64,000 nucleotides of DNA, taken from UHGV virus genome UHGV-1332848, one strand, 5' to 3'. Every line of letters begins with the position of its first letter. Within the stretch, counting starts at the first letter, position 1. Of this stretch, positions 39,381 through 44,316 are shown one piece after another. This DNA comes from a virus. Below the pieces are notes generated by a model, which worked only from the letters and a program-made list of their open reading frames with translations, was not told where the DNA came from and did not search any database. A program made the position numbers and the translations under genes.

Positions 39381-39605
39381 ATGATTGAATTGTGGTTTGT
39401 AATCTCAATGTTAACATGCATCATTTATTTCCTTATTCTGTTCAGATGTGAAAAGATTATAAAAAAACATTTGAGCATAAAATTTATTGAAACAATCAAA
39501 ACACTTTTAATATGTTTTATACCAATAGTACACATGTTCGTGATGCTGGGTTTAATGTTTGTATTGTTATTTGTGAGTGACGAAAAATTAAAGAGTTTAG
39601 TGTAG
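39381..39605 (+). CDS. small membrane protein (2 TM)
   Basis: Hydrophobic 'LWFVISMLTCIIYFLILF' and 'LICFIPIVHMFVMLGLMFVLLFV'. Confidence 0.45.
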   Translation: MIELWFVISMLTCIIYFLILFRCEKIIKKHLSIKFIETIKTLLICFIPIVHMFVMLGLMFVLLFVSDEKLKSLV

Positions 39606-39697
39606 AGTAGATAAAACATTGATTTTATTAATAATTAATTAAAAATAAGCCAACGTTGCTGAAACAGGGGTGAGTATAGATTAAAGGGAGGAATTAC

Positions 39698-40845
39698 ATG
39701 AAAGTTATTAAAAGAGACGGAACAGATGTAGATTTTCAAAAGGAGAAAATAGAAAATGCAATATTTAAAGCTATGAAAAATGGTAGTGGTGTAGTAAAGG
39801 AGAAGATTGCACAAAAGATATCAGAAGAAATACAACAATCTGCAATAAGTGTTCTATCAGTATCACAGATAGAAAAAATGGTTTATGATCTGTTAATTAA
39901 ATATAAACAAAAAGATACAGCTAGAGCATATGAGAGGTTCAGGGCAGTACAAGAATTTAAAAGAAATAATAATACAACAGACGAAAGTATACTAAGTCTT
40001 TTAAATAAAACTAATGAAGATGTTGCTAAAGAAAATTCCAATAAAAACTCAGTTATTGCGTCTACTCAAAGAGATTTGATAGCAGGTGAAGTTTCAAAAG
40101 ATATAGCAAAAAGAAAACTTATTCCAACACATATAGTTCAAGCACATGAAGAAGGGGCAATCCACTACCACGACCTAGATTATGCAATACAAAATATTTT
40201 CAATTGTTGTTTAATAAACCTACAAGACATGCTTGATAACGGGACGGTGATTAATGATAAATTAGTCGAATCACCAAAATCCTTTAGTACAGCATGTACA
40301 ATAACAACTCAAATAATGGCTCAAGTTGCAAGTAATCAGTACGGTGGACAAAGTATAACTATTGCACATTTAGCTCCTTATTTAAGAAGAACAAGAGACA
40401 AAGCATTTAAACATTATTATAATGACTTAGGCTTTGATGTTGAAACTTCTAATAAATTATCTAAAGATATAATGATGAAAGAACTTAAAGATGGTGTTCA
40501 GACTATAAGATATCAGCTTTCAACATTACAAACTACTAACGGTCAAGCTCCATTTGCAACTATTTACCTTGAAATTGATGAAGGTAATGAGTATGAGGAA
40601 GAAATGGCTTTGATTTGTGAAGAAATGATAAAGCAAAGATTAGAGGGCATGAAAAATTATAAAGGACAAGAAATAGGAGAGGCTTTCCCAAAACTTGTTT
40701 ATTTATTAGATGAACACAATTGTCTTGAAGGTGGAAAATATGACTACATAACTAAATTATCAGCTAAGTGTACAGCAAAAAGACTTGTTCCAGACTATCA
40801 GTCGGCAAAAATTATGAGAATGAATTATGAAGGAAATACTTTCCC
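39698..40845 (+). CDS. nrdD: anaerobic ribonucleoside-triphosphate reductase NrdD, exon 1 (3' boundary approximate)
   Basis: N-terminal ATP-cone 'VIKRDGTDVDFQKEKIENAIFKAM'. RBS AAGGGAGG. ORF runs into intron and stops at 40858. True 5' splice site lies a few codons upstream and is not determined here. Confidence 0.8.
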
Positions 40846-41729
40846 ACCGATAAACTAAAACTGTCGCATATAGTAGTGATATTATATGAAAACCCATCTA
40901 AACGGAGAAAGTCCTATATAAAGGATAACTCACCGTACTAAATTGTTGAATATTTAAAAATTAATTAAATAGGAGGTGTTATATTGTGGAAAGATATTCA
41001 AAATTGGGAAGATTTATATGAAGTTAGCGATACTGGGGAGGTTAGAAATAAATTATCCAATAATTTATTAGTTGGTGATATTAATAACGCAGGTTACTAT
41101 CGTGTATGTTTATATAATAAGAACCACATACCGCCAAAACAAAGGTTCTTTAGACATAGACTGGTGGCAAAACATTTTATAGATAACCATAAAAATCTAC
41201 CTCAAGTAAACCATATAGATGGTGATAAATCAAATAATTCGATGAATAACTTAGAATGGGTTAGCCCAAAAGAGAATGAAATACATAGTAGAAAAGTTAT
41301 TGGCGTAAAAGAATATAAACCATTTGCTGTAGTTTTTGATAATGGTAAAACCATTGTTTGTAATTCAAAATCAGAATTAAGCAATGAAATTGGGTTAACA
41401 AAAACTTCTATAAAAGAATGGTTGCATAAAGGTAACACCGGTTATTTAAAAAGAGGGATTAAAGATATATACTACATATAAAGTAAAAGTATTCAACATA
41501 AAAGTCTAAAGACTAACGAAAACAATTAATAGAGAAACACTATTAAGGGAATGAGTAGTGTAGAGCCACAAGCTTATGGTGGTAAGGCACGGGAGATAAG
41601 ACCTTTTAAATCGAAACGATGGGGCTCTTATCAATGGTAACAGTTGTAAGAGTGTGATATAGTCTAATATCTTATGGTAACATAAGGAAGTTCATAAGAG
41701 AACTGTACAACAGTTGCGATGTTGTATGA
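40846..41729 (+). other. group I-like self-splicing intron interrupting nrdD (boundaries approximate), carrying an HNH homing endonuclease ORF
   Basis: ~0.9 kb non-NrdD insertion between two NrdD-coding halves. Downstream part (41482-41729) is structured RNA-like (paired GAGCC...GGCTC, AAATCGAAACGATGG). Exon-2 reading frame reopens at 41730 after in-frame TGA 41727-41729. Confidence 0.65.
40984..41481 (+). CDS. HNH homing endonuclease (intron-encoded)
   Basis: 'VNHIDGDKSNNSMNNLEWVSPKENEIH' HNH motif. 165 aa. RBS AGGAGGTG. Located inside the nrdD intervening sequence. Confidence 0.75.
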   Translation: MWKDIQNWEDLYEVSDTGEVRNKLSNNLLVGDINNAGYYRVCLYNKNHIPPKQRFFRHRLVAKHFIDNHKNLPQVNHIDGDKSNNSMNNLEWVSPKENEIHSRKVIGVKEYKPFAVVFDNGKTIVCNSKSELSNEIGLTKTSIKEWLHKGNTGYLKRGIKDIYYI

Positions 41730-42701
41730 ATATTATGGGGATGTAGATCACATGTAGGATGTGGTTGGAAAGATGAAAATAACAACTATAAGTTTTACGG
41801 AAGATTTAATCAGGGTGTAATATCGTTGAATTTACCACAAATAGCAATTCTATCTAATGGAGATATTGAAACATTTTGGGATATACTTGACCAAAGATTA
41901 CAACTGTGTAAAGAAGCATTATTGGTTAGACATAATCATTTAATTGGAACTCTTTCAGATGTTTCACCTATTCATTGGCAACATGGAGCAATAGCCAGAC
42001 TAGATAAAGGAGAGAAGATAGATAAATTACTGCAAAATGGTTATTCTACACTTTCATTAGGGTATGTTGGTGTATGCGAGATGACATACGCTATGTTAGG
42101 TGTAAGTCATACGACACTTGAGGGTGAGAGGTTTGCTTTGGAAGTAATGAATCATATGAATGAAGCATGTCAAAAATGGAAAGATGAAACTGGATTAGGC
42201 TTCAGTCTATATGGCACTCCAGCAGAAAATTTAATATATAGATTTTGCAAACTAGACAAGCAAAGGTTCGGTAATATACCAAATGTAACAGATAAGTTAT
42301 ACTATACTAATTCTTATCATGTTCATGTTTGTGAAGAAATAGATGCATTTAGTAAATTAAAATTTGAATCTCAATTCCATAACATAAGCCTAGGTGGATG
42401 TATTTCTTATATAGAAGTTCCTGATATGAGCAAAAACTTAGATGCAATTGAACAAATTATAAACTTTATATATCACAATATACAATATGCAGAAATAAAT
42501 ACTAAACCAGATATCTGTTATAAATGTGGATTTACTGGTGAAATAAAGAATGATGATAACTTAGAATGGTATTGTCCTAATTGTGGCAATAGAGATGAGT
42601 CAGAAATGCAAGTAATGAGAAGAACTTGTGGTTATATAGGGACTAATTATTGGAATAAAGGAAGAACTGCTGAAATAAAAGATAGAGTAATTCATTTATA
42701 A
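41730..42701 (+). CDS. nrdD: NrdD exon 2 (glycyl-radical domain); coding resumes upstream of the track ORF start 41826
   Basis: Frame-0 translation from 41730 'ILWGCRSHVGCGWKDENNNYKFYGRFNQGVISLNLPQIAILS...' is continuous and NrdD-like. Zn site 'CYKCGF...CPNCG'. Glycyl radical motif 'RRTCGYIG'. Confidence 0.8.
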   Translation: MLWGCRSHVGCGWKDENNNYKFYGRFNQGVISLNLPQIAILSNGDIETFWDILDQRLQLCKEALLVRHNHLIGTLSDVSPIHWQHGAIARLDKGEKIDKLLQNGYSTLSLGYVGVCEMTYAMLGVSHTTLEGERFALEVMNHMNEACQKWKDETGLGFSLYGTPAENLIYRFCKLDKQRFGNIPNVTDKLYYTNSYHVHVCEEIDAFSKLKFESQFHNISLGGCISYIEVPDMSKNLDAIEQIINFIYHNIQYAEINTKPDICYKCGFTGEIKNDDNLEWYCPNCGNRDESEMQVMRRTCGYIGTNYWNKGRTAEIKDRVIHL

Positions 42702-42705
42702 GAAG

Positions 42706-43212
42706 GTGTTTTGTATGAATTATGCAGAAATTAAAAAGTTTGATATAGCTAATGCTCCAAAAGTTTGTTGTACAATATTTTTTAGTGGGTGTACTCATAA
42801 TTGCAAGGGATGCTTTAACAAAGAAGTACAAAATTTTAATTATGGAAAAGAATTTTCTAACGAGGTTATGAATTACTTCATAAGCAAAGCTAGTCATAAA
42901 CAGATTAAAAATATATGTATATTAGGAGGAGAACCGTTCCAGCAAGAAATTGATATAATGATTAATTTCCTTGAAAGGCTTAAAATTGAAGTTAAAAAAC
43001 CAATCTGGGTTTGGACGGGATATCTATACGAAGAGTTACTAAAAGACAGAAATAAAAATAGACTATTAAAATACATAGACGTTTTAATTGATGGTAGATT
43101 TGAATTGGATAAAAAAGATTTAAATTTAAGGTTTAGAGGTTCAAGTAATCAAAGAATTATAGATGTACAAAAAAGCCTTAAGCAAAATAGAATAATAGAA
43201 TTTTTATATTAA
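42706..43212 (+). CDS. nrdG: anaerobic RNR activating protein NrdG (radical SAM)
   Basis: 'CTIFFSGCTHNCKGCFN' CxxxCxxC radical-SAM cluster motif. 168 aa. Immediately after nrdD. Confidence 0.85.
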   Translation: MFCMNYAEIKKFDIANAPKVCCTIFFSGCTHNCKGCFNKEVQNFNYGKEFSNEVMNYFISKASHKQIKNICILGGEPFQQEIDIMINFLERLKIEVKKPIWVWTGYLYEELLKDRNKNRLLKYIDVLIDGRFELDKKDLNLRFRGSSNQRIIDVQKSLKQNRIIEFLY

Positions 43213-43228
43213 AGGAGATTAAAAAAAT

Positions 43229-43711
43229 ATGTTTAAAATAATATTGGTGTTATGGTTTTTGAGATTTTTTATAAATCTATTTACAAACAATTTTACATTT
43301 AAATATTTATATAAAAGGTATTTAAAAAGTTTAGAGAGATACAATGTGACAAAAAGTGGTGATATAGACTCGATAGAGGAAGATGGTAAGATTGAGATAA
43401 TGTTAGAAAGGTTCTGTATAATCGTTGTTGGTATTTATAAGATTTTAATGCTAATAATTGGTTTAATAATGATGTTGACTATGGTTAAATACGATCCAAC
43501 ACTTATAACAAAGATATTTATACTTTTAAATATTACATATATAATTGTATCAATGATAAAAGCTAAATTTGCTAAAAAGAAAGATGATAATCTTATTGAA
43601 TCAACCAGAAAAACTATTTACGATATAGAAAGATTTTCTTTTTATAAGCTTATATGTAGACTTATAAATGTTTTATATTGGGGTTATGCAATATATCTAT
43701 TATTCTTCTAA
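43229..43711 (+). CDS. hypothetical multi-pass membrane protein
   Basis: 160 aa with 3-4 hydrophobic helices. RBS AAAGGAGA. Confidence 0.5.
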   Translation: MFKIILVLWFLRFFINLFTNNFTFKYLYKRYLKSLERYNVTKSGDIDSIEEDGKIEIMLERFCIIVVGIYKILMLIIGLIMMLTMVKYDPTLITKIFILLNITYIIVSMIKAKFAKKKDDNLIESTRKTIYDIERFSFYKLICRLINVLYWGYAIYLLFF

Positions 43712-43830: not shown

Positions 43831-44316
43831 ATGAAGATTAGAATTAAATACTTTAATAATGCAACAAAATTACAAAAGATTGAGAAAGGTAACTGGATAG
43901 ACCTATATGCAAATGAAGATGTTTTTGTACCACAAGGAGAAAAAGCAATGATTCCATTGGGAATAGCTTTAGAGTTACCTAAAGGCTGGGAGGCACATGT
44001 AGTCCCAAGATCAAGCACATTCAAAACATGGGGAATAATACAAACTAATCACATGGGCGTAATTGATGATACGTATATAGGAGATAATGATATGTGGTGG
44101 TTTCCAGCCTATTGTTTAAAAGGTAAGGAACATAAGGTAGAAACTGAACCTCACTCTACAACATATCCATTGGGAGTTAAAGGAACTTGGATTAGAAAAG
44201 GGGATAAAATTTGCCAATTTAGAATAATGGAAATTATGCCTGAAATAGAATTTGAAGAAGTAGAACATTTTGGCAATGTTGATCGTTCAGGATTTGGTTC
44301 TACGGGAGCTAGGTAA
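43831..44316 (+). CDS. dut: dUTP diphosphatase (dUTPase)
   Basis: Motifs 'VPRSS', '[10 protein letters not shown]', C-terminal 'RSGFGSTG' (motif V). RBS AAAGGAGAGG. Confidence 0.85.

Follow-up and report, generated by a model that had tools for sequence, protein, structure and literature searches.

We analysed a 64,000-nucleotide (nt) stretch of the UHGV virus genome UHGV-1332848 (hereafter, the window) and conclude from its sequence that the phage nrdD gene, which encodes a class III ribonucleotide reductase, is almost certainly interrupted by a mobile, self-splicing group I intron with an IA-type architecture. The original prediction, made from the letters of the window, held that nrdD is split by a group I intron of around 0.9 kilobases (kb) that carries an HNH endonuclease gene. 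This is borne out: the insertion is 886 nt in length, has a complete group I architecture and shows covariation among relatives, and the open reading frame (ORF) predicted to encode the endonuclease does so, with NUMOD4 and HNH_3 domains. In 13 of 13 divergent relatives examined, nrdD is interrupted at the identical codon by the same intron and endonuclease. The genes involved, in window coordinates, are arranged as follows:

39698–40851, plus strand: nrdD exon 1, covering the ATP-cone and positions 1–249 of the NRDD profile (Pfam); delimited by DNA alignment to an intronless allele
40852–41737, plus strand: group I intron, 886 nt; supported by junction alignment, structure, covariation and a partial match to RF00028
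40984–41481, plus strand: gene for an I-HmuI-like HNH homing endonuclease of 165 amino acids, with a TTG start and an AGGAGG ribosome-binding site at 40972–77
41738–42701, plus strand: nrdD exon 2, with the finger-loop cysteine, a zinc ribbon and the glycyl-radical motif
42706–43212, plus strand: nrdG, encoding the radical SAM activase (168 amino acids; Pfam Fer4_12 and Radical_SAM)

Neither exon is correctly delimited by the ORFs as called. The first ORF (39698–40858, 386 amino acids) has U40851 as its last true exon base; the second (41826–42701, 291 amino acids) starts 88 nt downstream of the true beginning of exon 2, in agreement with the earlier suggestion that exon 2 opens before its annotated start. 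Coding sequence had also been proposed upstream of that start, and the frame after the TGA at 41727–41729 does read ILWGCRSHVGCGWKDENNNYKFYGRFNQGVISLNLPQIA; a translation beginning at 41730 covers positions 263–562 of the NRDD profile and includes Gly_radical (Pfam). As the intronless allele we used Clostridioides phage ES-S-0173-01, which encodes an uninterrupted NrdD of 706 amino acids (L001 4813–6933). Alignment of its DNA to both exon ends places the insertion within an ATG codon: CCT ATG GGT TGT in the intronless allele is the counterpart of CCG AT/...G/G GGA TGT in the window (slashes mark splice sites). The window junctions are ...TTCCCACCGAT/AAACTAA... and ...ATTATG/GGGATGTAGATCACAT, and the intronless allele reads ...TTCCCACCTATGGGTTGTAGAAGTCAT. 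The junctions can be fixed at 40851/40852 and 41737/41738 because this is the sole cut that places a U ahead of the 5′ site and a G ahead of the 3′ site while regenerating the methionine codon. Thus, the original prediction separated exon 1 from the insertion correctly and recognized the TGA at 41727, but its positions were approximate: exon 1 ends at 40851 rather than around 40845, and the 3′ splice site, placed near 41730, is 8 nt downstream of that estimate. The codon of Met385 is split, with exon 1 ending in AT and exon 2 opening with G, followed by GGA TGT for Gly386 and Cys387. The ligated exon junction is predicted to be ...CCACCGAT/GGGGATGTAGA..., and the intronless site of phage ES-S-0173-01, ...AATACATTCCCACCTATGGGTTGTAGAAGTCAT..., is a candidate homing target. 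As judged from these alignments, nrdD should be annotated as join(39698..40851, 41738..42701).

The joined exons form a reading frame of 2,118 nt that encodes an NrdD of 705 amino acids, with a single continuous Pfam NRDD match (1–562, 613.8 bits) as well as Gly_radical and ATP-cone domains. Aligning the spliced candidate to NrdD proteins, as had been proposed, settles the junctions: the product is 76% identical to the intronless 706-amino-acid protein and gapless across the junction at ...NYEGNTFPPMGCRSH..., and solved NrdD structures (PDB) align with it over its full length. The full NRDD domain, glycyl-radical motif, finger-loop cysteine and adjacent NrdG identify a class III ribonucleotide reductase. 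No in-frame ATG, GTG or TTG occurs between 41730 and 41826; the 29-codon segment with Cys387 therefore lacks an independent start and can be translated solely after splicing. The finger loop contains a conserved cysteine that starts catalysis and a methionine implicated in the reductive half-reaction (PMC4493059); from the M-G-C motif, we infer that the split Met385 is this methionine. As read from the sequence, the intron splits the methionine codon of the finger-loop M-G-C motif, in one of the most conserved parts of nrdD; the thiyl-radical cysteine follows two codons later.

Helices were assigned by eye and their coordinates were then fixed on the window sequence. They are listed below (all on the plus strand), together with support from an alignment of 14 introns, in which pairs with compensatory changes on both sides are termed double-changed, and from RNAalifold:

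40848–52 with 40862–66: P1, formed by exon CGAU and intron A with the internal guide sequence UGUCG
40867–72 with 40883–88: P2 hairpin; 5 of 6 pairs double-changed, also from RNAalifold
40893–98 (CCCAUC) with 41618–23 (GAUGGG): P3, strands 720 nt apart; 4 of 6 pairs double-changed, 98.8% paired, also from RNAalifold
40902–08 with 40930–36: P4, which encloses P5; covariation alignment
40911–15 with 40922–26: P5 hairpin; covariation alignment
40937–39 with 41503–05: P6; covariation alignment
40944–53 with 41489–98: P6a; 7 of 7 pairs double-changed, 100% paired, sequence different in each relative
41511–15 (GACUA, R element) with 41660–64: P7; invariant in 14 of 14 introns, fits the Rfam consensus in an ORF-less homologue
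41516–17 with 41558–59: 2-base-pair helix in a peripheral domain (41516–41605); covariation alignment
41526–32 with 41540–46: P7.1; 7 of 7 pairs double-changed
41565–69 with 41579–83: P7.2; covariation alignment
41584–87 with 41602–05: extra, optional hairpin; covariation alignment
41624–31 with 41646–53: P8 hairpin; 6 of 8 pairs double-changed, aligned as P8 by Rfam
41654–65: J8/7 (GUGAUA) and the P7 3′ strand UAGUC(U), S element; Rfam consensus AGAUAUAGUCu
41670–76 with 41681–87: P9, with a GUAA tetraloop; covariation alignment, RNAalifold
41689–93 with 41700–04: P9.1; RNAalifold, nearly invariant
41706–12 with 41720–26: P9.2; every pair double-changed, RNAalifold

The P4–P5–P6 and P3–P8–P7 domains and P9 reproduce the conserved core topology, and the crossing of P3 and P7 forms the pseudoknot that is typical of group I introns. 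The R element (AGACUA, 41510–15) and the S element (GUGAUAUAGUCU, 41654–65, corresponding to the pattern AGAUAUAGUC) are both present; the J8/7–P7 3′ sequence GAUAUAGUCU occurs just once in the window and has matches in many known group I introns of phages. U40851·G40863 forms a wobble pair at the 5′ end of the intron, at the splice site, and the intron terminates in G41737 (omega-G); a G precedes the 3′ exon sequence G-GGN-TGY in all 14 introns. The endonuclease gene and its AGGAGG site are housed in a 535-nt loop of P6a, which splits the core. The presence of P7.1 and P7.2 between P7 and the 3′ strand of P3 assigns the intron to subgroup IA (T4/Twort type), by architecture alone. The sequence beyond the endonuclease gene had been described as a structured non-coding tail, and these 256 nt (41482–41737) fold at −61.9 kcal/mol compared with a shuffle mean of −44.4 kcal/mol (z = −4.31; 0 of 200 shuffles as low). 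The original prediction had staked itself on the presence of a P3–P7–P9 core. P3, P7, P8 and P9 are present, and all but the invariant P7 show covariation.

One further feature of the peripheral domain was matched to no named group I element. The base that follows P7 (GACUA-N) shows Watson–Crick covariation with the central N of a conserved GUAG-N-GUA motif approximately 40 nt downstream (U-A, G-C, A-U and C-G combinations in 13 sequences). This pairing gives the 2-base-pair helix at 41516–17/41558–59, which is flanked by possible A·G pairs.

The covariation analysis used the window intron and those of the 13 relatives, comprising ten endonuclease homologues with genomic context and three from bacterial genome assemblies. 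The introns (759–912 nt) were aligned after replacement of the ORF loop with GAAA, giving 386 columns. Under the structure derived from the window, 95.8% of 1,117 cells pair canonically, compared with 33–46% when partners are slid by 1–3 columns, and the covariation score is 0.50, compared with 0.07–0.11 in the slid controls. Both-sided compensatory changes were found at 59 of 88 pairs across 16 helices, including each pair of P6a, P7.1 and P9.2, and none of 500 shuffles matched any observed measure. RNAalifold, given no structure, recovered P1–P6a, P8 and P9–P9.2, and all nested helices agree. The exon takes part in this pattern: in P1, changes at exon positions −3 and −4 are mirrored in the guide sequence, giving four exon and guide combinations (CGAU with GUCG, CUAU with GUAG, GCAU with GUGC, and CCAU with GUGG). 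The U·G wobble is present in 13 of the 14 aligned rows; the lone C-G belongs to a misaligned row (L026), and direct extraction gives exon ends in AT in 14 of 14.

The endonuclease ORF and exon 1 do not share a reading frame. Its product matches NUMOD4 (2.1e-10) and HNH_3 (3e-7) in Pfam and aligns with I-HmuI (PDB 1U3E) over residues 2–150 (E = 2.7e-17); H58, H77, N85, N89 and N98 are invariant among 17 homologues. There are 727 homologues at E ≤ 0.001, and the best 120 are nearly all full length, at 49–68% identity, with one at 99%. A search of IMG/VR with the protein returned one distant relative (40% identity). Enzymes of the I-HmuI type are HNH endonucleases that are encoded in introns and nick DNA (PMC2988022). 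The window enzyme is a putative homing endonuclease that may nick intronless nrdD alleles, which fits the existence of an intronless close relative, the spread of the intron over divergent nrdD genes and the occurrence of ORF-less derivatives. A search of the 64-kb window gave no second copy of either the endonuclease or the intron family.

These features suggest a pathway. The nrdD exons, the intron and nrdG would be transcribed together: no terminators were found in the region scanned (39400–43400), and promoter-like sites in that region are fewer than in shuffles. The RNA would fold into the covariation-backed P1–P9.2 structure. If the chemistry is that of the family, external guanosine would attack after U40851, held in the observed U·G wobble by the guide sequence, after which the terminal G41737 would dock in P7 and the exons would join. 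Ligation would rebuild the ATG of Met385 and yield the 705-amino-acid NrdD with its P-M-G-C-R-S finger-loop motif intact. The 165-amino-acid endonuclease would be translated from its own ribosome-binding site within the P6a loop and, in a co-infection, could nick or cut an intronless nrdD, the repair of which would copy the intron in.

Several observations weigh against this interpretation. The proposed check with the Rfam Intron_gpI model (RF00028; gathering cut-off, 50 bits) was not passed: at gathering there is no match in the whole window or in a 1.2-kb region, and the 3′ part (41470–41745) scanned alone reaches 23.2 bits (E = 4.6e-4), below the cut-off, with P8, J8/7–P7 and P9 aligned. 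An ORF-less copy at the same nrdD site (L114, 683–1016) is also below gathering, at 37.4 bits (E = 5e-8). Variation is absent from P7 and from most of P9.1, so that their pairs give no evidence either way and covariation is neutral for both. The tested structure was itself taken from the window, a choice that gives it an advantage over the slid controls but does not affect the RNAalifold outcome or the counts of compensatory changes. No stretch complementary to the 3′ exon (GGGAUG), which would form P10, was seen when the P1 loop was inspected by eye. Finally, the window endonuclease starts with TTG (40984–40986), whereas an ATG follows a similar AGGAGG in 13 of 13 relatives; with this start, expression of the endonuclease could be low.

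The low Rfam score is explained by a model that is weak for this subfamily and by an ORF that splits the core, and it is no argument against a group I fold. The ORF-less copy aligns over the entire RF00028 model with a helix assignment identical to that of the window. Positive controls score well: T4 sunY, in which the catalytic core is continuous, reaches 105 bits owing to that continuity, and Staphylococcus phage introns reach 71–98 bits. Among 16 IMG/VR loci that carry the P6–P7 signature of the subfamily, 1 was detected at gathering (L125, in a different gene). Routine annotation at the curated threshold will therefore miss these introns, even those without an ORF. By sequence similarity, 280 phage records have a match to the 3′ core, including Staphylococcus phage K-type genomes and one feature annotated as intron_gpI, and the J8/7–P7–P9 core is 80–86% identical to Staphylococcus phage introns. 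Two core matches considered as nrdD introns were rejected: that of Lactococcus phage AM3 sits in a tape-measure gene and that of Vibrio phage VnaP in a DNA polymerase gene.

Because gene callers report two NrdD ORFs and an HNH ORF, the locus could also be read as a genuine gene split, in which a free-standing HNH gene has been inserted and the two halves of the enzyme assemble without splicing, as for nrdA/mobE of Aeromonas phage Aeh1. Ribonucleotide reductase genes that are split, yet functional and free of introns, have been reported (PMC3653736). We consider such a split scarcely credible here. The first start in the second half, at 41826, lies 29 codons after conservation resumes, so that Cys387 would be lost; the codon is exactly restored at the junction; and the flanking RNA forms a covariation-backed group I fold with a guide sequence that tracks the exon. 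An intein or other protein-level element, of the kind reported for phage nrdD (PMC3653736) and seen in the nrdD of one relative, is excluded by stop codons and the change of frame. No uninterrupted reading frame spans the insertion: the exon 1 frame meets a TAA after two codons of it, the endonuclease ORF lies in another frame with its own ribosome-binding site, and no Intein_splicing or Hint domain occurs among the window ORFs (Pfam).

A decayed group I intron that no longer splices, leaving nrdD as a pseudogene, would account for the sub-threshold Rfam score and the TTG start. However, no helix is disrupted in the window, neither exon contains a stop, and from end to end the two exons encode a product with 76% identity to the intronless protein. 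At least six contigs from different samples encode an identical exon 1 protein and keep the order exon 1, endonuclease, exon 2, and nrdG is intact directly 3′ of nrdD, preserving the operon context. Decay is thus very unlikely, and we retain the interpretation of a very probably functional, mobile group I intron.

Window coordinates match those of a 130-kb metagenomic contig (L008; ENA ERZ807474 NODE_1_length_130278), the G+C content of which is 27.6%. Around nrdD, the contig is similar to Clostridioides phage ES-S-0173-01, at 79% DNA identity (exon 2) and 76% protein identity; in a search of a phage collection for near-identical DNA, exon 2 alone was matched, at 79%, to this intronless phage. 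A dUTPase gene (43831–44316) is located shortly 3′ of nrdG.

The intron family extends beyond the window. ORF-less copies occur in IMG/VR at the same M/GCR codon of nrdD-like genes (L109, L111, L114, L118, L119, L128, L131 and L134), and the endonuclease family comprises more than 100 listed clusters at 90% identity, with 13 of 13 sampled members at this nrdD site. An exact search of IMG/VR with the core pattern for close relatives gave no match. The same intron subfamily was also seen in a gene with a ...KIAINSL / YGALG... motif (L115, L116 and L121), which appears DNA-polymerase-like by eye, and in other genes. We tentatively suggest, with rather less than even confidence, that the window holds a representative of a large, undescribed IA-type lineage specialized on the finger-loop methionine codon of nrdD (M/GC), with a dedicated I-HmuI-like endonuclease family and ORF-less derivatives, that is systematically missed at the Rfam threshold. 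If so, the lineage would offer a means to study how a nicking HNH enzyme recognizes DNA that encodes the active site of a glycyl-radical enzyme, and a basis for better models for intron detection.

Other selfish elements were encountered in related nrdD genes. A near-identical relative (L009 6856–9161; ENA ERZ28602707 scaffold_53) has an extra group II intron in exon 2 of nrdD, inserted after ...TATGCAGAAA (around window position 42495) and followed by a reverse-transcriptase ORF (RF02004, 163 bits); the window allele is without it. Among other nrdD genes with the same HNH intron, two (L012 and L013, 1374–1858) have a second gap of approximately 480 nt without an ORF, one (L104) is in four fragments and one (L105) has an intein in exon 1 (Intein_splicing domain). 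The nrdD of related phages thus looks like a hotspot that gathers several independent selfish elements.

For annotation, the consequence is direct: gene callers give two nrdD fragments and drop 29 codons, including that of the catalytic cysteine. The locus adds to the known preference of phage mobile introns for ribonucleotide reductase genes and for the most conserved positions, which encode active sites. Phage nrdD genes that are split, and introns in genes for ribonucleotide reductases, have been described before (PMC3653736; PMC12880540), and current understanding is unchanged. Group I introns, homing endonucleases and inteins are known to recur in nrdD, which is recognized as a hotspot for them (PMC3653736; PMC12880540), and splicing of nrdD fragments has been seen in metatranscriptomes (PMC12880540). 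The reports of split nrdD in Lactococcus phage 949 and in the gut ‘Jug’ jumbo phages do not give the insertion site or the endonuclease family described here (PMC3653736; PMC12880540).

The original prediction invoked the sunY intron of phage T4, and the analogy holds in part. Both are mobile introns of subgroup IA in the same nucleotide-metabolism gene, nrdD, but they differ in site, endonuclease family and layout of the core. The T4 nrdD intron maps to the interval that corresponds to residues 235–273 of the window protein; it is near T4 codon 166, around 125 codons upstream of the equivalent (T4 Met288) of the position interrupted here. The T4 gene reads unbroken through SPMGCRS (tblastn), with the counterpart of Cys387 at T4 codon 290 by arithmetic. 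T4 I-TevII is a GIY-YIG enzyme, whereas the window endonuclease is of the HNH family, and the T4 catalytic core is continuous and upstream of the ORF, whereas here the ORF in P6a divides it. We therefore rejected a shared site and lineage with T4 sunY/I-TevII, and the sequence comparison indicates that the window intron is an independent insertion in nrdD and not an orthologue of the T4 intron.

The nrdB introns of T-even phages (I-TevIII) and of Vibrio phage BONAISHI also have an HNH gene in the middle of an intron in a ribonucleotide reductase gene. In the phage collection, no similarity to the 3′ non-coding part extends further than that of the BONAISHI intron (72.7% identity to window positions 41544–41665). 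Unlike nrdD, the host gene of these introns encodes the class I small subunit. I-TevIII is dimeric, has a zinc finger and makes double-strand breaks, and is not known to be I-HmuI-like.

The DNA polymerase intron of Bacillus phage SPO1, with I-HmuI, is, similarly, a phage group I intron that encodes an HNH enzyme of the same architecture, with an N-terminal NUMOD4-type DNA-binding part, an HNH core and C-terminal helices. The window endonuclease is no more than a distant relative of I-HmuI and must have a different target. Related group I introns occur in phages of Gram-positive bacteria, for example the Twort-like Staphylococcus phages that share the conserved core. Unlike the introns of SPO1 and the Staphylococcus phages, which are found in DNA polymerase, lysin or structural genes, the intron described here has nrdD as its host gene.

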